Virus genome (UHGV): UHGV-0126033
Strand: one strand, 5' to 3'
Source: a virus
DNA: 14,369 nt
Part shown: piece by piece, positions 1,667 to 14,369 of the stretch
Layout of the letters: every line of letters begins with the position of its first letter
How positions within the stretch are numbered: the stretch's first letter is position 1
The notes under the pieces: model-generated
Databases searched by the model: none
What the model was told of the DNA's origin: nothing
What the model saw: only the letters and a program-made list of their open reading frames with translations
Program-made: the position numbers and the translations under genes

Positions 1667-2686
1667 TTAGGGCTTGGTGGTGAAGGTGAACTTGGTCACT
1701 GCAGCGGTGTCCGGACGGCGCAGGCCGATGTTGTACATCGCGTAGCAGTCCAGCACGTTGCTGAACTCGCGCTCATCATCCCAGATACGGGAGGTGAACG
1801 GCTTAGCTTCAACAGTCACCAGGGTCTTGGACTTGCTGAAAGTCACCATACGGCACAGCGCGTCGTCAGAGGTGACGGTGTAAGCAGAGCCCAACGGGTG
1901 CGTACCGGCAGCGGTCGGGAACTCGGTGCACTCTACCACAGGCACGCCGTTCATCTTCACTACACGGCGGTCTTTGTAACCGTCGTTGTTGGATGCACCG
2001 AAGTCCAGGTTCAGGAGCTTCGGATGCTCCAGCAGACGCGAATAGGTATCGACATCCACCAGGGTAATCATGTCCGCCAGCGGGGTCTTGCGCTTGATGA
2101 GTTCATCGATACCAGCCTTGTGGGCCAGGTTGATGTTCATAGCGTTCGCCTCCATCTCAGCCTGGGTCAGCTGCGTGGCGGTGGTGGTACCCGGAACCAG
2201 GACGGCTGCGCCCACCTCGATACCGTCATTGAATGCTGGTTTCAGGTGCGCCGGAGCAACCCAGGAGCGGCCCTTGATGAGCTGAATCAGGTGCGCCTGG
2301 TCGAAGGTCTCCGCGAACTCAGAGCCGTTGTTCTGACCCATCTCGGTCAGGAAGTCCGGACCGGTCCAGTCATCCTGGTAGTCAATCGGGTTACGGATAT
2401 ACAGCACCGTATCCACCACGATAATCATCTTATCGTTACGGACCGGGGTGCTATCCAGCGCCTCACCGGAGCGACGACCTTTCACCGAGGAGGTGTTCAG
2501 GCGGTCAATACGGTAGGTGTTGGAACCACTGATAGAGCGCTGGCTGGAGAGGCCCAGGAACAGAGCCTGGTACTGGAAGCGGGTGTCGACTTCATTCTGG
2601 TACACTTCCAGGTGAATATCGACGTCAGACGCCGCGCCTGCCCAGTGGGCTCTTGTCAAGTTAGCTTTATAGATGGTATCGGCCAT
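1667..2686 (-). CDS. Major capsid protein (T7 gp10A-like)
   Basis: 339 aa, ATG at 2684-2686 with AAGGAAAG upstream. C-terminal YAMYNIGLRRPDTAAV resembles the T7 gp10A C-terminus (AKYAMGHGGLRPEAAGAV) as I recall it. Position after the scaffold gene and similar length to T7 10A (345 aa). Confidence 0.88.
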   Translation of the reverse strand: MADTIYKANLTRAHWAGAASDVDIHLEVYQNEVDTRFQYQALFLGLSSQRSISGSNTYRIDRLNTSSVKGRRSGEALDSTPVRNDKMIIVVDTVLYIRNPIDYQDDWTGPDFLTEMGQNNGSEFAETFDQAHLIQLIKGRSWVAPAHLKPAFNDGIEVGAAVLVPGTTTATQLTQAEMEANAMNINLAHKAGIDELIKRKTPLADMITLVDVDTYSRLLEHPKLLNLDFGASNNDGYKDRRVVKMNGVPVVECTEFPTAAGTHPLGSAYTVTSDDALCRMVTFSKSKTLVTVEAKPFTSRIWDDEREFSNVLDCYAMYNIGLRRPDTAAVTKFTFTTKP

Positions 2687-2698
2687 ATTCTACTTTCC

Positions 2699-3175
2699 TT
2701 ATTTAAGTACATTAACAGATGCATAAGCATGCATCTTTGCTTTAGCTTTCAGGTAGGCATCTCGCGCTGCGTGTTCGCAGTCAAAGTGCCCGAGGTGTGT
2801 TGTCTTACCATTTAGCTGTATGTAGGCCCGCCACTTGTTAGCTCGGGAATCCCAACAATAGCCTTTCCACACAGAGTTCTGAGCGTTACCTGATTTGTCA
2901 ACTAGGCGCAGGTTCTCAATTCTATTGTCTGCTTTATCCAGATTAATGTGGTCCACCATCAACCCTTGGGGTATATCCCCGTGATGCATGAACCAAACAA
3001 GCCGGTGTGCATACTCTCTCACCCGTCCCGCTGCCCCGCGGTCCCAGGTCACGCGGCGGTATCCCCAGTTATTCTGGTAGGTATCACCGAAACGACCTGT
3101 GGCCTTGTTAATCAAGCGCCCGTCTTCTGTGTAGGTGTAGCGATTAGCTAGTTCTTGCAAGAGATTAATCTCCAT
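2699..3175 (-). CDS. Free-standing HNH homing endonuclease with AP2-like DNA-binding domain
   Basis: 158 aa. HNH region YAHRLVWFMHHGDIPQGLMVDHINLDKADNRIENLRLV and AP2-like region WDSRANKWRAYIQLNGKTTHLGHFDCEHAARDAY. No clear Shine-Dalgarno; starts 12 nt after the scaffold stop. Confidence 0.85.
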   Translation of the reverse strand: MEINLLQELANRYTYTEDGRLINKATGRFGDTYQNNWGYRRVTWDRGAAGRVREYAHRLVWFMHHGDIPQGLMVDHINLDKADNRIENLRLVDKSGNAQNSVWKGYCWDSRANKWRAYIQLNGKTTHLGHFDCEHAARDAYLKAKAKMHAYASVNVLK

Positions 3176-3187
3176 GATTGGTAAGTA

Positions 3188-4030
3188 TTAGAGACCTACG
3201 CGCTTACCGGCTTCACGGCGTGCGAGCAAATCGTTATAACGTTGACTGAACTGTGGGGATGCCAAGCTACGGTTGCCCGCTTCCTGACGGAGTTTGGTAT
3301 ACTCTGCACGGAAGTCCGCAGCAGATAGTGCATTGTTGCTAGCTACGCCTCGTACCATTGGGTTCTGTGTCTTGATAAGACCCATATCCCGGCAGAAGCC
3401 CGCCACCAACTCGGCGGCCTGCTTAAGCTCGCCTGCGTTAGCGAGTACACGAGCTGCGTTACGCAGAGGTTCCGGAGCCTTGGAATTAAACAGCTGCGCT
3501 GCTACCTCCCAGTTCTCCTTCCCGCCTACAATATCGTAAGCTTCCTGTACTGCTTTGGTGGCTTGGCCAACCTGGTCTTCCAGGTACGCCTTGGCCAGCA
3601 GCTCTGCATAAGCAGCGTGCTCGCCGAAACGTTCCTTAATGAAGGCCGTATCGATTAGGTTAGGGTCCTGGTACTCCAGGGCCTTACCAAGTGCCCGCAC
3701 CATATCAGAGTCAGTTAACCCAGAGACTTTCTGCAACATAGCTACACCGGCGTCAATCGTCGGGTTGCCAGTCTTAGCCAGCTCCTGGGGCTGCTCTTTA
3801 GCGCTATCGCCACCCTTATCCAGGGCCGCTTTTAGGGCTTCGATATCCAGAGGAATCTTAGCAGGGTCAGGGGAATCTTTGCCCTGTTGCTGCTGGGTAG
3901 GTGTCTGTGCATCCTGCACGCCTTGATTGTTCGGGGCGCTAAGGGGAGCACCTAGGCCCGGAATCTTAGGACCACCTTGGTTCTCTACCTGTGTAGTTTC
4001 TACGTTTTGACCGTTTTCTACGTTATCCAT
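3188..4030 (-). CDS. Capsid assembly (scaffolding) protein, T7 gp9-like
   Basis: 280 aa, acidic, Ala/Gln/Glu-rich and low in aromatics. ATG at 4028-4030 with AGAGG upstream. Called by position between portal and capsid and by composition; no specific motif. Confidence 0.65.
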   Translation of the reverse strand: MDNVENGQNVETTQVENQGGPKIPGLGAPLSAPNNQGVQDAQTPTQQQQGKDSPDPAKIPLDIEALKAALDKGGDSAKEQPQELAKTGNPTIDAGVAMLQKVSGLTDSDMVRALGKALEYQDPNLIDTAFIKERFGEHAAYAELLAKAYLEDQVGQATKAVQEAYDIVGGKENWEVAAQLFNSKAPEPLRNAARVLANAGELKQAAELVAGFCRDMGLIKTQNPMVRGVASNNALSAADFRAEYTKLRQEAGNRSLASPQFSQRYNDLLARREAGKRVGL

Positions 4031-4044
4031 CTATGCCTCTGTTG

Positions 4045-5640
4045 TTAACTTGGTAATAAGCCCAGCTGCTTACCTGCTACTGTCGGGTCCGCTGCTGTCA
4101 AGCCCTGGAGTTGGTCCTGTGCTGCACCTGCGGATACATCGGCAGACGCATCTTGAACCTGTTGCTTCTGCTGCAGCTGCTCTTCGGTGTACATGAACGG
4201 CTCGCTGACGATACCATAGGCGTCGAAGTACCAGTCTACACACGCATCCTTGTTGAAGCGCGGAGTAATCTGCTCAAGCACCGGGATAGCCAGCTGCATG
4301 GACTGTGCCGCCTCTAACAGCTTGTCCGCTGCCGCGGCTTTAGCCAGCGCAGAGGTACCTACTGTAACGTTGATGCTCACCACGCCTTCGCTGAGGTACA
4401 ACTTAAAGCGAGGGTACACCAGTGCAGTGTACAGGTACGCCAGCTTACGCAGCCAGGTGTCGCTCAGGATACTGAACCCACCACCCATAGCGGCTTCCGC
4501 CTCTTTGGCGTTCTGGCGAATCTCATAAGCCGTGACACGCTCACCCTGCCGGGAGTTGCCGGTGTACATAAACGCACGAGACAGTTTCTGTTCGAGCATC
4601 TGGATGTTGCTGGCAATCCACTGAATCTTCTGGGCAGAGCCGCCCTCGTAAGCAGTGACAGGAGACTTAGTGTTTCCGTTGGAACCACCGCCGCCCACCT
4701 GCACGGCCTCCCCGGTCTCCGCCGTAGAGAACTCGTCCACATCCAGGCCAGAACTAGAATCTACTAGTGGAATCAGCCGAGAGGCTTCGACCTCGTAGTT
4801 AGTCAGTGCTTCCGACAGTACCGATAATCGGGCAAAGTCCCCAGCGTAGTCCTCTACCAAGCCGCGCCCGTAGTGCTCGCCACTAACAAGGTTCCACACC
4901 AGCACGTTGTAGGGGAGCTCCAGCTCCGGATAGGTGCTGCTGTCCCCGATACGGTGTCCATCGGCTTCTTGATACACCTCGTAGCTTACTACCTCTACGC
5001 CTTCCTCTGTCAGCTTAACTTTGCGACAAGCGGCAGTGTAGATATCAACGTCGCCGTATGGGTCTTTGTCACGGTAGAAGGTGTTCTGGAAATCCTCTGG
5101 CAGGTCCTGGACGCTTGTGCGCTCTCTGATAATGAGTCGCAGGACGTTCCCGCTGCCATCCCTTCGAACGGTAAAGTTACGAACTGAGTAGACGATGGAT
5201 TTACCTGTCCGCTCATCAATATACTCCAACGCGTTACCTGTAACCAGCAGCAGCTTCACAGCTTGCAACTTCGCAGCATAACCGTCTTTCTCAAATACTT
5301 TCTGTGACGCTGTGTTCTCAACCTCAGCCAGCTTAGATTCTGCCGTAGCTGCACTGCCCAGCGAACTAATGAACTCGTCCAGGTCCGAACTCTTGGAGAA
5401 CCGGAAGAAGCTAGTGCCCTGAGGGAACAGTGCCCCTACAATCTTAGTGGCTGCAGTGTTGACCAGCTGCGCGCCGGTGCTCTGGTAGTCACGCTCTAGC
5501 GGTCTGCGTCTACCGTCCAGGGAATCGTCCCGGGTAAAGATAGTGCTGAGCGTCCACTGCGCGAACTTCTCGGAGGCATCCAATACACCTGCGTCCTGGT
5601 CCTTCTTAAAGAGTTCTGCTAATGTTGCTTTTTGTTCCAA
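4045..5640 (-). CDS. Portal (head-tail connector) protein, T7 gp8-like
   Basis: 531 aa (T7 gp8 is 536 aa). N-terminus MEQKATLAE resembles T7 gp8 MAEKRTGLAE as recalled. Apparent TTG start at 5638-5640 with AGGGGG four nt upstream; no in-frame ATG near the 5' end. Confidence 0.75.
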   Translation of the reverse strand: MEQKATLAELFKKDQDAGVLDASEKFAQWTLSTIFTRDDSLDGRRRPLERDYQSTGAQLVNTAATKIVGALFPQGTSFFRFSKSSDLDEFISSLGSAATAESKLAEVENTASQKVFEKDGYAAKLQAVKLLLVTGNALEYIDERTGKSIVYSVRNFTVRRDGSGNVLRLIIRERTSVQDLPEDFQNTFYRDKDPYGDVDIYTAACRKVKLTEEGVEVVSYEVYQEADGHRIGDSSTYPELELPYNVLVWNLVSGEHYGRGLVEDYAGDFARLSVLSEALTNYEVEASRLIPLVDSSSGLDVDEFSTAETGEAVQVGGGGSNGNTKSPVTAYEGGSAQKIQWIASNIQMLEQKLSRAFMYTGNSRQGERVTAYEIRQNAKEAEAAMGGGFSILSDTWLRKLAYLYTALVYPRFKLYLSEGVVSINVTVGTSALAKAAAADKLLEAAQSMQLAIPVLEQITPRFNKDACVDWYFDAYGIVSEPFMYTEEQLQQKQQVQDASADVSAGAAQDQLQGLTAADPTVAGKQLGLLPS

Positions 5641-6378: not shown

Positions 6379-8847
6379 TTAGCAGAAGAAGAACGGGGAT
6401 TCTAGCACTTGCCGGATGTCCAAAGTGCCCACTTCCGGCATGTCCAGGTCCGTCAAGTCTGCCCCGGCTGCTGCTGCCGCGCGAGTAATGTAGCCAAGCA
6501 GGTCATTCTCTTCATACAGGCGCACAAACTGCTCACGGATGTGCCTATGCATAGCGTCAACGTCAGCTGCGTGAGTAGCCAGCGAGTCGTGAATAGGCAC
6601 AATGTCCAACCCCTCCGCAGCACAGAGCACCATCATCAAGTGCGTACTGTCCAGGCTATGCACAAAGTTCGGGGCAATCCCGGAGGCTGCCTTGCGCTTG
6701 TTGCAAGTTTTGAAGTCCCGGTTGTGTACCAGTACCGCTGACAGGTTCATGCAGTCAATACGTACGCGCACTTCTTCACGCTGCGTGTAGCGGTTCATTA
6801 CGAGCCCACCCAGCGGCGTATACCACTGCAGATGCTGGCTTGCCGGTACACGCCTAGCGAGGTTCTGCAAGTACCCCATAACTGCGGCTGCGGCTGGGTT
6901 TGCCTCCTCGATAGCAGTGCGCATACGCGGAGCCAGGTAGCATGACAAGTTCCACAGACTGTTAGTCTCAGTACCCTCGTACCCCTCAGCGCAAGCGCCT
7001 TCGAAGATGTAGTCGCTGCAGCTGCGCACAGTGGCGCTGTAGAAGTAGGTCATACTAGGGCGCTTGGTCATGCTGCGGGTGATTTCGTTCTCTCTCCAGT
7101 ACGTGCTCTGGATAACGAAATCCTCCTTGTCCAGGTCCAGTATCACCTTCTCGTCCGTACGGCGCTTCACGTCCATGTACAGGTCCGCTTTCTTATCATT
7201 ACCCTCCCAGTACAGGTTCGTCAAGCGTCCGCCCACAGGGTCTCTCAGGAGCGCTGAGAGATGCTGTCCACCTGAGTTTGTAGCGTCCATAGCAACTGGG
7301 ATTCGGCTAATATGCTCTTCTGGGCATCCAGAACGAACCGCATTAACCAAGTCGATAGCGGCGGCCAGCAGGCACCAGGGGCTATCCGCAGAGGAAAAAG
7401 CAGGGGCATCAAGAGGAGAATCCGCGAGCCTCTCAATCTCTGCATAGTTCGCATCAACCCAAGCTGCACGGTCTTCGAATAGGGTTTTGTCATAACCAAA
7501 GCAAGTGGCGACGTGCACTTTAAGCCAGAAAAGTCCGCGCTCTCCCAGAGGCTTGCCACGTCCGAATTCAAGAAGGGCTTTCTGCAAATCAGAACCTTGG
7601 GGATGCAGCGAGGACTTGAAGTACAGGCGGTAGCGCCAGTCCACACAAGTCGGGAAGTACAGGGCTTTCTCATCTTTGAATTCCTCCGCCATTTCCAGCG
7701 TGGTCAACAGGCTGCGTAGTTGTGACACACGCTTACGGTCTGCGCTGTACCATAGGGACATGCGCGTCTTCCACTCACCGAAGCGGCCCAGTTCTTCTTC
7801 GGTGTAGTTCTCTTTTGGTACTCCATCCAAGTACCACTCCGGTTTAGGCTCTGGTACTGAGCGGGGCATGCCCACCCCAATACCCAGGGCCCGTGCTTCT
7901 TGCACCAGTTCCAGTATGCGCTTATTAATACGGTATGGGGTTTCCTGTGCCTTATTAAGCGCCTTCTTGATGCCGTCCGCGGACTTAAATGCTTCCGCTA
8001 CTTCACGGAGTCGCGCGCGGTCGATGTGCGAGTTGTGATAGGTCCCGCGATTGTCGATGGGGGTAAGGTACCCGCCATCCCACATAGTGGTGTGCTGTAC
8101 CGGTGGCACCAGCATAGGCGGCTTCATGGTTACGGTATCAGCGGACTCTACCAGTTTCTGGAAGGCCTCCATAACATCGTCAGCCGGGTAGAGCATGCTC
8201 AGGTTCCCACTACAGTTCTTCCATTGGAACAGGCCAGTCTCAAACACCGCGGCACATAGCAGCCGACCTACTGAGATATTCTGGGAGTTGGTCCATGGCT
8301 CGTGCCCATAGTGCACGTTCTCAGCACTGGCCCGCAGCGTACGCAGGATGTGCGTGGGAGACTTGGTCTTACGCTCCGTAAGGTACTCGTACACACGGTC
8401 CATGTACGCCGGAGCCACGTTGCGTAACTGCAGGGCCAGCAGTTCCGATTGTACGTTCCGGCCCAGCGCGGACATTACCGCCTGTGCAGTCTGGCGGCGG
8501 CTAGCGGACTCGCCAGGAGCTACGCTAAATGCCTCAAACATTGTGCATAGGCTCAGGGTGGTCAGGACATCCAAGGGGACTAAGCGCAGGAACCGGCGGT
8601 ACTTACCGCCAATGCCCGGGGCTTTTACATTTCGCATCTCATCGATAGCGGCGGCGGCCACCTCATATGCCGAGGTGAGCATACGCTGCGTCATCGGCAG
8701 GTTCATAATCCCACCGTTCTGCAATGCGTCCGTAATCAGCTTACGTGCCCGCTCGATTCCGCGAATCTTATAGGTCTCTTCAAGCTCCAGCTGGCGTTTC
8801 ACCAGTGCTTCCTCTGGTACTACAACCGTATTCAGGGCGCTAATCAT
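6379..8847 (-). CDS. Single-subunit DNA-directed RNA polymerase (T7 RNAP family)
   Basis: 822 aa. Matches to T7 RNAP conserved blocks: YFPTCVDWRYRLY and HPQGSD, DATNSGGQHLSALLRD (motif A aspartate), ASGIAPNFVHSLDSTHL, IHDSLAT (motif C aspartate), C-terminal LESPFFFC (T7 ends ESDFAFA). ATG at 8845-8847 with AAGGAGA upstream. Confidence 0.95.
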   Translation of the reverse strand: MISALNTVVVPEEALVKRQLELEETYKIRGIERARKLITDALQNGGIMNLPMTQRMLTSAYEVAAAAIDEMRNVKAPGIGGKYRRFLRLVPLDVLTTLSLCTMFEAFSVAPGESASRRQTAQAVMSALGRNVQSELLALQLRNVAPAYMDRVYEYLTERKTKSPTHILRTLRASAENVHYGHEPWTNSQNISVGRLLCAAVFETGLFQWKNCSGNLSMLYPADDVMEAFQKLVESADTVTMKPPMLVPPVQHTTMWDGGYLTPIDNRGTYHNSHIDRARLREVAEAFKSADGIKKALNKAQETPYRINKRILELVQEARALGIGVGMPRSVPEPKPEWYLDGVPKENYTEEELGRFGEWKTRMSLWYSADRKRVSQLRSLLTTLEMAEEFKDEKALYFPTCVDWRYRLYFKSSLHPQGSDLQKALLEFGRGKPLGERGLFWLKVHVATCFGYDKTLFEDRAAWVDANYAEIERLADSPLDAPAFSSADSPWCLLAAAIDLVNAVRSGCPEEHISRIPVAMDATNSGGQHLSALLRDPVGGRLTNLYWEGNDKKADLYMDVKRRTDEKVILDLDKEDFVIQSTYWRENEITRSMTKRPSMTYFYSATVRSCSDYIFEGACAEGYEGTETNSLWNLSCYLAPRMRTAIEEANPAAAAVMGYLQNLARRVPASQHLQWYTPLGGLVMNRYTQREEVRVRIDCMNLSAVLVHNRDFKTCNKRKAASGIAPNFVHSLDSTHLMMVLCAAEGLDIVPIHDSLATHAADVDAMHRHIREQFVRLYEENDLLGYITRAAAAAGADLTDLDMPEVGTLDIRQVLESPFFFC

Positions 8848-10032: not shown

Positions 10033-10233
10033 CTAACATAGTTCAATCTCCCCCACTACATCCAGCATAGCATTGTCGTGAATGAGAGAATCCAAATGCT
10101 CAACCGTTCTTCGATGTGTTTTGGGTGCTCGTTCACGCAGCGCAACCAGAATAGTTTCAAGTTCATCATGTTTCCCCTCGTAGTATAACTCAATCGCCCG
10201 CAGGCTCATTTCCTTCGCAGACATCTTCGCCAT
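10033..10233 (-). CDS. Hypothetical small acidic protein (66 aa from the ATG at 10233)
   Basis: Track ORF 10033..10302. The ATG at 10231-10233 (MAKMSAKEM...) has AGGAG 12 nt upstream and overlaps the exonuclease 3' end by 44 nt. Glu/Asp-rich. No motif. Confidence 0.45.
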   Translation of the reverse strand: MAKMSAKEMSLRAIELYYEGKHDELETILVALRERAPKTHRRTVEHLDSLIHDNAMLDVVGEIELC

Positions 10234-11158
10234 TGTCTGGGTGCTCCTGTATCCACTGTATATGCTGTTTATGGTACTCGTGCAGCGAATGCACCCAGTC
10301 ACGCAGACTGGGAGTAGTCAACAGTGACATCAGATACAGGTACGCTGAATCTGACGGGGAGCGCCGCAGGAACAGGCATTCTGCCTCTGCGAGTACATCT
10401 TGGTTGTTTCGAGCGTAAGCCGCTACAACGAATTCTGCGGCGTCCTGCTCTGAGGTAATAGGGTAGATAGCATCAAAGGCCGTTCGCTTCCCACAGAGCT
10501 TCCCATCAAGCAATGTGATGCCTTTGACGTTATCTGCGTCATCTCCTGCTAGCATCTGCCACCAGAAGAACTTAGTGCCATGCGCTCGTACCGGCATAGC
10601 CTGGGTATCATCCCACTTAATCCATCCGAAGGGGTTATCCAAGGCAGGCCATACGGTTCCGGTTGGGATATCGAACCGGGCCATAGGGCTGAGCCAGGAG
10701 TCCTTGTCCTGAGACATCAGGATTCCACGGTCCCCGAAGCTGTACGAATCCATTATGAACAGGTCATCCGCCTCGAAGTAGTCACTGCTTACTACCTGAA
10801 TACCCTGCTCAGAATACTGGTCTGGATTTTCAATCAGGTGCCGCTTCAATGGCGCCTTGAGCGGTAGCTCCTGTCGATTAGCGCGCTGCCCCTGATAGGG
10901 CTTAGCCGTAGGCAGGTGCCAGCGCAAACACTTGGCGCATCCCGTAGGCGTCAGATACGCAACTGCTTCTGAGCAGCCGACCAGGAACATGTCCTCAAGC
11001 ACCAGCTGATAGAAGCGGCGTATTGCGGTGTCCAAACGTTTCACTGTAGCGGCAGATTTATAAACTGTGAAATCCGCATCGTACAGCAGAATCTTCCCAG
11101 AGTTCTGCGGAGCTAACTGCTCCCCGAGCTGGGACAAGTCAACCCCGTTGATAATCAT
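10190..11158 (-). CDS. 5'-3' exonuclease (FEN family, T7 gp6-like)
   Basis: 322 aa. Acidic active-site blocks in the expected order: ILLYDADFTVYKSA, FEADDLFIMD, MSQDKDSW, LAGDDADNVKGI. ATG at 11156-11158. Confidence 0.8.
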   Translation of the reverse strand: MIINGVDLSQLGEQLAPQNSGKILLYDADFTVYKSAATVKRLDTAIRRFYQLVLEDMFLVGCSEAVAYLTPTGCAKCLRWHLPTAKPYQGQRANRQELPLKAPLKRHLIENPDQYSEQGIQVVSSDYFEADDLFIMDSYSFGDRGILMSQDKDSWLSPMARFDIPTGTVWPALDNPFGWIKWDDTQAMPVRAHGTKFFWWQMLAGDDADNVKGITLLDGKLCGKRTAFDAIYPITSEQDAAEFVVAAYARNNQDVLAEAECLFLRRSPSDSAYLYLMSLLTTPSLRDWVHSLHEYHKQHIQWIQEHPDNGEDVCEGNEPAGD

Positions 11159-11319
11159 CAGACCCCCGTAACCTTCTTGGTCAACTTACGCGCCCAGGAT
11201 TCCCAGGCGGTCAGCGCCTTGCTGTTCTCTACCTTCTCAAACACCCAGCACAAGATGGCTACCGGTACTAGAGGGGCCACTAGCATAAAATAAAATACTC
11301 TGGCAAGGGTATTTCGCAT
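11158..11319 (-). CDS. Unlisted small ORF, 53 aa, predicted single-pass membrane protein
   Basis: Hand translation MRNTLARVFYFMLVAPLVPVAILCWVFEKVENSKALTAWESWARKLTKKVTGV. ATG at 11317-11319 with GGAGA seven nt upstream; TGA stop overlaps the exonuclease ATG as ATGA. Fills an otherwise 160-nt gap. Below the track length cut-off. Confidence 0.4.
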   Translation of the reverse strand: MRNTLARVFYFMLVAPLVPVAILCWVFEKVENSKALTAWESWARKLTKKVTGV

Positions 11320-12439: not shown

Positions 12440-12456
12440 GGCCCCTAGGAGGGGCC
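12440..12456 (-). promoter_or_regulatory. Perfect 17-nt palindrome (stem-loop) in the 53-nt intergenic region upstream of the 84-aa gene
   Basis: Plus strand GGCCCCTAGGAGGGGCC. On the minus-strand RNA this is GGCCCCU-CCU-AGGGGCC followed by UUAGAGGAAGCCU-AUG. No U-tract, so not a classical terminator. Preceded by CTAATACGG. Confidence 0.3.
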
Positions 12457-12479: not shown

Positions 12480-13268
12480 TTAGGCTTGATGTGCGGCGGG
12501 TGCTGCTGGCGCCACAGGGGCTGCAGGGGCCACTGGTGCAGCCGGGGCTGCGGGTGCCTGCATAGCCGCCGGACTAGGAACCGAGCCAGCGTTCAGCAGA
12601 ATATCCAGAGCACTGCCAGGGAAGTCTACAGCCTTGTACATATCCTCCTGAATCCAGTTCTTGCTCTTACCATCGTCGAAGGTGCCTTCGATGTGCAGGC
12701 TATCCCAGGTCTCTTTGGTTGGGTTGTTCCACAGGAACAGCTTAATCTCAGAGGCATCCAGGGCAGGCATCTTGATAGGCTCGCCAGTGTTCGGGTCGAA
12801 TTTCGGAATCGGGCGGATACCGGACAGGTCCGCGATGTTGGACTTCTTGCCCGCGGCGCTGGTGTGCTCATCAATCGGGAAGGTGAAGGCCTGGCCCAGA
12901 CGCTGTGCTGCATGCTTAATGCTATTGTCGTAGTTGAGCTTGTCGAAGAACTTCTTGAAGCCTGCGCGCTCAAAGTTACTGATAGCCATCGGGAACGGGC
13001 GGATACGCTTCACTTCGCCGTTAGGACCGAACACTACAATGCCGATGCGTACGTTAGCTACTGCGGGCTTACCGGTCGGCTTGCCACCCTTAGTCGGCAG
13101 GCGCTTACCGATTTCTACGTACTCGGTGAAGTAGCCGTAGTATTCACCCTTCGGCAGCAGCACGTCCTCATACGCACCGCCCTGTGCGGTTTCAGTCATA
13201 TCAACATCCTGCGTTTCAATAGCAGCCGCTACCAGGGAGTTCAGGGTGTCCAGTGCATTCATCGTCAT
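12480..13268 (-). CDS. Hypothetical protein (262 aa) with C-terminal Pro/Ala-rich low-complexity tail
   Basis: ATG at 13266-13268 with GAGGAAG seven nt upstream. C-terminus SPAAMQAPAAPAAPVAPAAPVAPAAPAAHQA. No catalytic motif recognised. Confidence 0.6.
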   Translation of the reverse strand: MTMNALDTLNSLVAAAIETQDVDMTETAQGGAYEDVLLPKGEYYGYFTEYVEIGKRLPTKGGKPTGKPAVANVRIGIVVFGPNGEVKRIRPFPMAISNFERAGFKKFFDKLNYDNSIKHAAQRLGQAFTFPIDEHTSAAGKKSNIADLSGIRPIPKFDPNTGEPIKMPALDASEIKLFLWNNPTKETWDSLHIEGTFDDGKSKNWIQEDMYKAVDFPGSALDILLNAGSVPSPAAMQAPAAPAAPVAPAAPVAPAAPAAHQA

Positions 13269-13319: not shown

Positions 13320-13490
13320 TTAGCGGGAGGCAGCTTTGAGGGCCACCGCCAAGAACACTAGGATTACGCCGAGTGCCATAGGCCCCCAGAACGGGAGCAG
13401 CACCCACAACCAGGACCAGGCGATAACGCCAGTCAGTTTCAAGGTTACAAAGATAAGGCCCAGTACAGAACAGATTCCCATTTTCATCAT
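13320..13490 (-). CDS. Small membrane protein with two predicted transmembrane helices
   Basis: Track ORF 13320..13538 begins at a TTG inside the upstream gene. In-frame ATGs at 13490, 13487 and 13481 follow AGAGGTG just after the upstream TAA. Protein MMKMGICSVLGLIFVTLKLTGVIAWSWLWVLLPFWGPMALGVILVFLAVALKAASR. Confidence 0.55.
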   Translation of the reverse strand: MMKMGICSVLGLIFVTLKLTGVIAWSWLWVLLPFWGPMALGVILVFLAVALKAASR

Positions 13491-13500
13491 CACCTCTGTG

Positions 13501-14358
13501 TTATTTAGTACGACCAACCCAACGACCATCGTCGTCAAGCAGCATCGGAATTAACTGCGGGCAACCCTCGGTGATTACCATCACACCCAGGATTGGTTTC
13601 TTGCGGGTGAGTCTGCCGTAAGCAAAGGCCATGCTCTTACGGTCAATCAGACACCCAGCATACGCACCAAAGTACAAAGCTGTTGAGCTAGCTGCATATT
13701 GCACCTCAAAGCGACCATGTTCGTGACCAAGGACAAGGCTGGTTCTTTCGTGGCTAGCGTTGAGCATGAAGTCACCCGACACTTGATGCTGGAATCTAAC
13801 CGGGCCAAGTGGGGTATTGAGTACCCACGCGTCAGCCCAAGACCACGCCGGGGCACCATGTTCAGGGAAAAGTATATCTCGGTACTTCTTGATGAATTGC
13901 ACTGGTAGCCCGTGAGCTTTCGCCCTGCGGTAAACCAGACTGCCGTGATTGGAATCGCAAACCAATAGGTTCGGGAACAGTTCATGTAGCTCCTCCAGTA
14001 CGAGCTTAGCTTTCTCCAGCTCCACCCCGGCGCTATCCAGGTTCGGGTTACTTTCGTGGAATGATATAGCGTGGCCGTCCGTCTCGTCGCCTACCTGTAC
14101 AACCATGTCCGGACAGTAGGCGTCTCGCACAGATTCTAAGAAGGCCATAGCATCTACGTGCGTATAGGGGGCATGCAAATCCCCAACTACGAGAATACGG
14201 TGGCACACTTCCGGCACGAAGGTTTTGCCGATGTCATCAGTGGGACTGGGCTGTATGAGCTTTAGTGCCTCCTTCATGTGGGATATTGCCTTACCCTTGC
14301 TCCCAGCGTGGTCTAGGAATATGCTGCGCCAGTACTTCACCATCTGTCGATACACCAC
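13501..14358 (-). CDS. Calcineurin-like metallophosphoesterase (putative nuclease or phosphatase); 5' end uncertain, may extend past the window
   Basis: Metal-ligand motifs in canonical order: VVGDLHAPY, VQVGDETDGH, VCDSNHG, LVLGHEHG. Track start 14358 is a GTG and the frame is still open at the window edge; an ATG at 14341-14343 is an alternative start. Confidence 0.75.
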   Translation of the reverse strand: MVYRQMVKYWRSIFLDHAGSKGKAISHMKEALKLIQPSPTDDIGKTFVPEVCHRILVVGDLHAPYTHVDAMAFLESVRDAYCPDMVVQVGDETDGHAISFHESNPNLDSAGVELEKAKLVLEELHELFPNLLVCDSNHGSLVYRRAKAHGLPVQFIKKYRDILFPEHGAPAWSWADAWVLNTPLGPVRFQHQVSGDFMLNASHERTSLVLGHEHGRFEVQYAASSTALYFGAYAGCLIDRKSMAFAYGRLTRKKPILGVMVITEGCPQLIPMLLDDDGRWVGRTK

Positions 14359-14369
14359 TGGCTCCCCCA

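Follow-up and report, generated by a model that had tools for sequence, protein, structure and literature searches.

A predicted Trp-rich membrane hairpin encoded among the DNA-metabolism genes of a KP34-like Klebsiella phage belongs to the widespread protein family PHROG 1374

PHROG 1374 is a family of small phage proteins that carries no assigned function and whose members appear in GenBank as hypothetical protein, "transmembrane protein", "small Trp-rich protein" or "transmembrane fragile-X-F protein"; no published experimental study of any family member was found in the literature on phage Trp-rich, fragile-X-F and TMEM185 proteins and on KP34 early proteins. We investigated a member of this family that is encoded in the virus genome UHGV-0126033, of which the whole analyzed stretch of 14,369 nucleotides is called the window. 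An initial annotation, made from the letters of the window and a list of its open reading frames (ORFs), had placed a small membrane protein with two transmembrane (TM) helices inside the DNA-metabolism block, and both the neighboring genes and the hairpin model agree with that description. The window protein matched PHROG 1374 with an E-value (E) of 4.4e-20 and 72.3 bits, residues 1-53 aligning with profile positions 13-65 of 89, and it shares with the other members the length, the hairpin format and the LKLTGVIxWSWxWVLxPFW core. When 1.84 billion representatives were scanned in full with HMMER, 2,153 clusters at 50% identity were recovered (E <= 1e-3), most of them single-unit proteins of 54-96 residues. 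Since the gene is already annotated ("hypothetical protein", in an identical GenBank copy; the identical protein is annotated in Klebsiella phage RCIP0044) and its family is catalogued, it is ordinary as a finding of the window. The family, with more than 2,000 clusters and a motif that ranks among the most conserved in phage small proteins, is a better target than the single gene.

The window phage is a Klebsiella Drulisvirus, a KP34-like podophage (Autographiviridae, Slopekvirinae). Over the 2 kb around the hairpin gene, identity reaches 99.8% with Klebsiella phages RCIP0044 and RCIP0106 and 86-93% with many other KP34-like phages, and phage KpV71 is 89% identical to the window over the hairpin region. 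Orthologues of the gene were collected from 33 Drulisvirus contigs of IMG/VR. The ORF was present at all 33 loci with an intact frame that ended in a short basic tail; its absence or loss of frame in close relatives, which the initial annotation had raised as grounds for doubt, was not seen. The sequences upstream of the 33 genes fell into four unrelated types, each with GAGG or GGAG a few bases ahead of the same ATGAAAATG, and the residue that precedes MKM varied among M, I, T, Y and P (IMKM, tMKM, yMKM, pMKM). Because the Shine-Dalgarno (SD) sequence and ATGAAAATG are conserved and the preceding residues are variable, the conserved start is the ATG at 13487, which gives a protein of 55 residues; an alternative in-frame ATG at 13490 in the window phage would give 56. 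The program-listed ORF at 13538..13320, of 72 residues with a TTG start, begins within the 3' end of the phosphoesterase gene and was rejected as an over-extension into that gene, since the residues ahead of MKM are not conserved. Thus, where an ORF of about 55-69 residues at 13320-13538 had been claimed, the ORF itself and its stop at 13320 (TAA, 13322..13320) stood, and the longer start gave way to a coding sequence for 55 residues at 13487..13320.

The phosphoesterase stop codon (TAA, 13503..13501) lies 13 nt ahead of the hairpin ATG. The four upstream types exist because some phages carry ~480 extra bases between the phosphoesterase and hairpin genes, and as the hairpin gene keeps its own SD sequence and start behind this insertion, it does not depend on coupling to the phosphoesterase gene. 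The insertion occurs in part of the genus (loci L014, L019-L023, L028, L032 and L033; ~2520-3000) and is annotated as an HNH endonuclease in phage QL.

Selection was analyzed over the first 36 codons of 30 distinct nucleotide sequences. The results showed 17 variable third codon positions against 7 first and 7 second positions, a mean proportion of synonymous differences (pS) of 0.20 and a mean proportion of nonsynonymous differences (pN) of 0.036, a ratio of 0.18. Close relatives form 208 clusters in the database, and two of 120 close-relative clusters have non-hydrophobic, frameshift-like tails (P0110-type). Judged by this substitution pattern, the hairpin ORF is a protein-coding gene under purifying selection. 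That it is instead a chance ORF or the shadow of another signal might be argued from its shortness and from the open antisense frames that accompany hydrophobic ORFs: a plus-strand ORF of 72 residues lies antisense to the hairpin gene at 13336..13554, and antisense ORFs were also found at 12 unrelated loci. The plus-strand ORF is the ordinary antisense shadow of a hydrophobic gene. Against a chance origin stand the pN/pS of 0.18, an SD sequence and ATG kept in four upstream contexts, the family match (E 4e-20) with its more than 2,000 clusters, and an AlphaFold2 (AF2) model of high confidence (predicted local distance difference test, pLDDT, 93.5). The conservation data already refute this explanation, which has virtually no probability left.

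The hairpin protein is almost wholly apolar, with a grand average of hydropathy of 1.6 and Kyte-Doolittle windows above 2 at both ends. AF2, run on a 107-sequence family alignment, gave a model with the mean pLDDT cited above, in which a helix at residues 6-19 and a turn at residues 20-26 are followed by helices at residues 27-30 and 32-55 (56-residue numbering, which is used for all model and alignment positions). The homologue PVP-SE1 gp37 was assigned two TM helices by its annotators (TMHMM/Octopus). The two strongly hydrophobic helices that had been read from the sequence were thus recovered by hydropathy, by the AF2 hairpin and by the annotation of a homologue, so that a lack of TM helices, which the initial annotation had named as grounds for refutation, was not borne out. 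Within TM helix 2, the first third (WLWVLLPFWGP) is near-invariant, and the distal part is hydrophobic and freely exchangeable. The soluble parts are tiny, comprising 3-5 residues at the N-terminus, 7 in the turn and 4 at the C-terminus. Counted together, the two terminal tails contain a mean of 3.8 Lys/Arg over the 107 sequences, the C-terminal tail has more K/R than D/E in 78 members and fewer in 9, and the turn contains no K/R apart from K18. By the positive-inside rule, this charge distribution suggests that both ends are cytoplasmic and the Trp-rich turn periplasmic, an N-in/C-in topology. Taken together, the protein is predicted to be a 55-residue helical hairpin of the inner membrane, with a short TM helix 1, a Trp-rich turn (LKL-TGVIAWSW) and a long, proline-kinked TM helix 2. 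A lipoprotein reading of "MGIC" was rejected, as the cysteine is present in only 28 of the 107 sequences and the lipobox is poor. A fold search of the hairpin against viral predicted structures returned only unnamed members of the same family. No PDB hits were obtained by profile search of the sequences, a fold search of the two-unit model described below found no relative in the PDB (best E 2.7), and the window protein matched no PADLOC defence model at E <= 1. The coordinates of the gene, its parts and its neighbors are given in Table 1.

Table 1. Positions in the window of the hairpin gene, its predicted structural elements and annotated genes around it
Feature	Coordinates	Strand	Basis or remark
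Coding sequence of the 55-residue hairpin protein (MKMGICSV...; MKMGICSVLGLIFVTLKLTGVIAWSWLWVLLPFWGPMALGVILVFLAVALKAASR, stop included)	13320..13487	-	Conserved start, intact frame, pN/pS, phrog_1374
Shine-Dalgarno sequence GAGGTG	13491..13496	-	SD-like GAGG/GGAG kept in all four upstream contexts of relatives
TM helix 1, residues 6-19, ICSVLGLIFVTLKL	13434..13475	-	AF2, pLDDT >90; ends in nearly invariant L17-K18-L19
Trp-rich turn TGVIAWS, residues 20-26	13413..13433	-	AF2 non-helical; predicted periplasmic
TM helix 2, residues 27-55, kinked at L31/P33	13326..13412	-	AF2 and conservation
Conserved family core, residues 10-37, LGLIFVTLKLTGVIAWSWLWVLLPFWGP	13380..13463	-	Unit of tandem relatives; matches PF10269 repeat
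Metallophosphoesterase (phrog_221), upstream neighbor	13501..14369	-	PHROG; extends past window end
262-residue protein (phrog_862), downstream neighbor, PAAP/PVAP-repeat C-terminal tail	12480..13268	-	PHROG
Exonuclease	11158..10190	-	PHROG/KpV71 annotation
RNA polymerase	8847..6379	-	PHROG/KpV71 annotation

Conservation across the family was counted in the 107-sequence alignment. Residues W27, V30 and P33 were invariant, and L10, F14, L17, K18, L19, I23, W25, S26, W29 and W35 were conserved in at least 90% of the sequences, position 18 being K in 103 and R in the other 4. The family consensus is G....LGL.FI.LKLTGVI.WSW.WVLAPFW.P, and the N-terminal tail and the distal half of TM helix 2 are variable. 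A similar division was found within the genus, where residues 1-36 are nearly invariant among the 120 close-relative clusters and the remainder occurs as ~5 unrelated hydrophobic variants of 17-32 residues. The gene is thus a mosaic in the genus, the distal TM helix 2 and tail (window 13320-13379, minus strand; orthologues L003-L037) contrasting with near-invariant codons 1-36, which suggests recombination inside the gene or a very relaxed constraint. We also observed ~55-residue C-terminal cytoplasmic extensions in two distant members, L035 (~3160-3315) and L105 (~5140-5327), which share the motif LGIER..(P)GETD.EL..RI, and fusions of other members to unknown soluble domains (P0171, 137 residues; P0127, 307 residues).

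The taxonomic spread of the family is broad, taking in phages and prophages across nearly all bacterial phyla. By tblastn, it was found in 506 phage records, which include Klebsiella podophages, Rheinheimera myophages, cluster A mycobacteriophages, Gordonia and Rhodococcus phages and Vequintavirinae, as well as T4-like, SPO1-like Bacillus, Vibrio and Campylobacter phages. Prokaryotic genomes, scanned at one per species, yielded at least 353 confirmed hits in Firmicutes, Actinobacteria, Bacteroidota, Proteobacteria, Gemmatimonadota, Spirochaetes, Planctomycetes and Saccharimonas, and also in metagenome-assembled genomes (MAGs) labelled Nanoarchaeota and Heimdallarchaeota. Seven prokaryotic loci were sampled, and in the five that gave PHROG matches all matched families were phage-typical: portal and minor and major head proteins; DNA polymerase and ribonucleotide reductase; a P2 gpA-type replication nickase; and exonuclease. 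Unmistakably phage-type genes lay nearby at four of these five loci, and the fifth had only the exonuclease.

The unit is also found in tandem. Two-unit relatives (P0128, P0146, P0151, P0159, P0166, P0212 and P0223) were accompanied by proteins of three units (P0123 and P0124), five units (P0122) and twelve units (P0121, 1,289 residues). The linkers of the two-unit proteins are polar, which fits parallel N-in/C-in units, and AF2 modelled a two-unit relative as two hairpins (predicted template modelling score 0.59, pLDDT 76.9). Covalent multimers of a unit are the usual signature of oligomerization when the unit is encoded singly, and the natural dimers, trimers and pentamers with polar cytoplasmic linkers therefore suggest that the single hairpin oligomerizes. 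A side observation concerns the five-unit relative P0122, which gave a weak match (28 bits) to SLATT_1, a 2TM effector associated with SLOG/SMODS; in cluster A mycobacteriophages, NearlyHeadless gp74 (L083 3600-3971), just upstream of the hairpin gene, contains a SLOG-family (YAcAr) domain (E 2.8e-17). The SLOG neighbor and the SLATT_1 match may be a coincidence. Assignment of the hairpin as a SLATT 2TM effector would rest on one weak match of a tandem relative in which no single stretch passes its own E-value, and the window protein itself gave no match.

The genomic context of relatives was sampled at ~20 independent loci, and DNA- or nucleotide-metabolism genes within a few genes, or an early lytic operon, were counted. 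Such a neighborhood was found in ~14 of the 20 contexts. In Drulisvirus, the block of phosphoesterase, hairpin and phrog_862 genes has the DNA polymerase gene upstream and the exonuclease gene downstream. NearlyHeadless gp73 lies between a DnaB helicase or SLOG/DprA-like protein and endonuclease VII plus primase, the T4-like JC221 member lies between helicase gp41 and primase gp61 in a region of small accessory genes, and that of the Rheinheimera Barba phages lies between DNA polymerase and exodeoxyribonuclease. RcGingersnap carries, in an early rightward operon, the order phosphatase, hairpin, membrane protein and MazG, the "phosphatase" having only a weak HAD-type match. The Vibrio F12 gene adjoins endonuclease V; locus L048 reads DNA polymerase, hairpin, exonuclease; in L069, L072 and L076 a DNA polymerase gene is followed, at some distance, by the hairpin and a gp2.5-like single-strand DNA binding protein (SSB); and the genes adjoin polymerase-exonuclease or exonuclease genes in L055 and L059 and a DNA methyltransferase gene in L061. 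The prophages L107, L092, L141 and L091 were likewise counted among these contexts. Family members thus recur in replication modules of T7-like, T4-like and P2-like phages, cluster A mycobacteriophages and marine myoviruses, and the replication-module position is a family-wide trait and not an oddity of the window phage, albeit one with a high base rate. A second, unrelated phage group (L039, L043, L044 and L058), also within the sample, has the hairpin followed by a metallophosphoesterase gene (phrog_20266 / phrog_221), opposite to the order in the window. A functional link to the metallophosphoesterase as a general rule was rejected, because most other contexts contain no phosphoesterase.

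In phiKMV-like phages, the DNA-metabolism region ends with the RNA polymerase gene, and the host polymerase transcribes the genes that precede it. Next to the hairpin gene, neither a sigma-70-like promoter nor an intrinsic terminator was predicted. The gene follows the phosphoesterase gene at a distance of 13 nt and precedes the RNA polymerase gene, a position that points to early/middle expression from host-polymerase transcripts, so that by analogy the hairpin should be made together with the DNA-metabolism genes in the early/middle phase.

Several features of the family bear on what the hairpin may do. The lack of a soluble domain implies that the protein must act within the membrane. A motif that is near-invariant across unrelated host envelopes and in long repeat proteins argues against a host- or phage-specific partner, and the same breadth favors either a self-packing unit or a universal target such as lipid, ions or a universally conserved machine. 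We tentatively propose, as a reading that is quite possible without being probable, that the protein is a self-assembling multi-hairpin membrane module that is made in the replication phase and acts on some generic membrane property. Several hairpins would pack side by side via the invariant core (K18, W25, W27, W29, V30, P33 and W35), and the multi-hairpin bundle so formed would be the non-covalent counterpart of the tandem relatives. During replication the bundle would alter a generic property of the cytoplasmic membrane, for example ion permeability or the organization of the outer leaflet, and the most plausible outputs would be an infected cell closed to further DNA entry or an adjusted ion flux. 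Under this proposal the protein would not cause lysis, would not tether replication proteins and would probably have no host-specific protein partner. The motif kept invariant across phages of unrelated hosts, with a distal TM helix 2 that is freely swapped, supports such a generic action.

A number of points weigh against this proposal. Oligomerization, timing and the membrane effect are all reached by inference, and the AF2 model of a two-unit relative reaches no more than moderate confidence (pLDDT 76.9). The link to replication modules has a high base rate, as non-structural regions of phage genomes consist largely of replication genes. There are also exceptions to it: in a Streptococcus suis prophage (L098) the hairpin gene lies between the minor and major head protein genes, and in PVP-SE1, Pleakley and L078-82 the contexts consist of unknowns only. 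Finally, the invariant motif could equally dock on a universally conserved membrane machine, in which case the part of the proposal that dispenses with a partner would be wrong.

This last possibility may be stated as a reading of its own, in which the hairpin inhibits or modulates a universal host membrane machine (the FtsH protease, the YidC/Sec insertase, or lipid-carrier or cell-division proteins) and the motif is the docking surface. Extreme conservation in the turn and the start of TM helix 2, with the rest variable, is the pattern expected of a binding epitope, and other small phage membrane proteins do target conserved envelope enzymes. However, the motif is reiterated in long tandem-repeat proteins, including those of the PF10269 type, which a structural packing unit fits better; hits also occur in archaeal MAGs, and no conserved neighbor indicates a partner, which leaves the docking explanation rather unlikely. 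Superinfection exclusion during the lytic cycle, as by T4 Imm, is a further reading, in which the protein, made early and inserted in the membrane, would keep out the genomes of secondary phages by disturbing their injection machinery or the membrane target of that machinery. T4 Imm-type proteins are small inner-membrane proteins among the early/replication genes of a lytic phage, and the hairpin is like them in being small, predicted to be membrane-embedded and encoded in a presumably early/middle block upstream of the RNA polymerase gene; members from temperate phages, moreover, lie in early lytic operons and not in the lysogen-expressed positions of morons, as lytic-cycle exclusion would require. 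Exclusion proteins are normally lineage-specific, whereas the motif of the hairpin is near-invariant in phages whose hosts, Gram-positive, Gram-negative and actinobacterial, differ in envelope and in route of injection. The Imm-type proteins are correspondingly narrow in distribution while PHROG 1374 spans host phyla, and no sequence relation between the two was detected. With no match to an annotated exclusion family in PHROGs or Pfam and a periplasmic part of only ~7 residues, exclusion of this type is a doubtful explanation. Exclusion and host takeover, two roles that the initial annotation had put forward, fit poorly in their classical form, which depends on a host- or phage-specific partner; a generic membrane function in the early phase is possible.

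Two further rivals of the self-packing proposal are a replication anchor and a holin-like protein. The initial annotation had also suggested membrane anchoring of replication, which would make the hairpin an anchor or organizer of the replication complex like phi29 p16.7, and in unrelated phages members do recur beside the genes for DNA polymerase, helicase, primase, SSB, exonuclease and ribonucleotide reductase. Proteins of the p16.7 type combine a TM anchor with a cytosolic DNA- or protein-binding domain, whereas the hairpin, with tails of 3-5 residues and a turn of 7, has no soluble domain with which to hold DNA or a replication protein. The replication proteins that flank it in the window have no TM segment to pair with, except for a separate single-pass ORF of 53 residues. 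The lack of a soluble domain thus argues against a replication anchor, which we regard as very unlikely. A holin, pinholin or antiholin-like protein that times lysis from outside the lysis cassette is suggested by format, class II holins and pinholins being two-TM proteins of about 70 residues and the hairpin a two-TM protein within a 55-70-residue range; in addition, two of the 107 members and one tandem relative weakly matched Phage_holin_3_6 (E 1e-3, below cut-off). The likeness ends with size and two-helix membrane format. The window gene lies neither beside an endolysin or spanin gene nor in the late region; it belongs to the pre-late region, where it precedes the gene for the phage RNA polymerase, and the contexts of its relatives are replication modules instead of endolysin neighborhoods. 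Close relatives have annotated holin, endolysin and spanin genes 25 kb downstream: in KpV71 they lie at 39.2-40.5 kb and the hairpin orthologue at 14.3 kb, in accordance with the earlier remark that the gene is far from where a lysis cassette would be expected. Holin families of PHROG and Pfam gave no match to the window protein, and a role in lysis timing is highly improbable.

The surroundings of the gene in the window were assigned from PHROG matches and the KpV71 annotation. Every window gene is on the minus strand, and the order along that strand is phosphoesterase, hairpin, phrog_862, small unknown genes, exonuclease, endonuclease VII, nucleotide kinase, RNA polymerase and head genes, the last being head-tail adaptor, scaffold and major head protein. 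The reported position of the hairpin ORF between the metallophosphoesterase gene and the gene for a 262-residue protein was confirmed by both sources. Some GenBank records label the phrog_862 protein "large tegument protein" or "single strand DNA binding protein". Searches of Pfam and PDB found no relatives of the 262-residue protein, and its assignment as a gp2.5-type SSB, which holds this position in other podophage loci, was rejected because similarity was undetectable and no PDB relative was present. The 53-residue membrane ORF mentioned above (MRNTLARVFYFMLVAPLVPVAILCWVFEKVENSK...; 11158-11319, minus strand) lies directly upstream of the exonuclease gene, contains one strongly hydrophobic N-terminal helix (Kyte-Doolittle, KD19 2.37) and a short polar tail, and corresponds to hypothetical gp27 in KpV71. 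A perfect GC-rich palindrome, GGCCCCTCCTAGGGGCC, was found at 12440-12456, within the 53-nt gap that separates the gene for the 262-residue protein from the one after it. Since the coding (minus) strand shows no T-run there, the palindrome does not qualify as a classical intrinsic terminator; a part in the processing or stability of RNA is possible.

The hairpin is also comparable to two families curated outside PHROGs. With TIGR04438 "small Trp-rich protein", whose name is used for the orthologue in some Drulisvirus records, it shares the character of a small Trp-rich membrane protein; the match was 14.7 bits (E 0.024) against a cut-off of 36, only residues 9-34 were aligned, and the window protein is not a member. 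Its score against PF10269 (Tmemb_185A) was 15.4 bits (E 0.015), below the gathering threshold of 23.1, and it is not a member of that family either. Among the single-unit relatives, 75 of 107 matched PF10269 at E <= 0.01 (best 8.6e-6), and tandem relatives exceeded its cut-off with 78.6, 45, 24.9 and 24.0 bits. A literature search for a functional paper on TMEM185A found none; the phage unit is related to the repeat of the uncharacterized human proteins TMEM185A/B. A more speculative and, in our view, unlikely reading is that the hairpin is a free-standing block of the TMEM185-type repeat that would form a homo-oligomeric channel-like complex, a phage "viroporin". Switched on together with the replication genes, it would serve phages from nearly every bacterial phylum, and some archaeal viruses, to adjust ion or precursor flux across the membrane. 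Were it true, an orphan family that extends to eukaryotes would gain its first function. With only 55 residues, and open to deletion from a lytic Klebsiella phage of 43 kb, the hairpin protein offers a cheap route to the function of the family. In the comparison with PF10269 (TMEM185A/B, Transmembrane Fragile-X-F), the likeness lies in its internal repeat, which corresponds to the phage unit; its proteins are long and polytopic, described by a 252-position profile, whereas the phage protein is a single hairpin of 55 residues, and the two are related at the level of the repeat.

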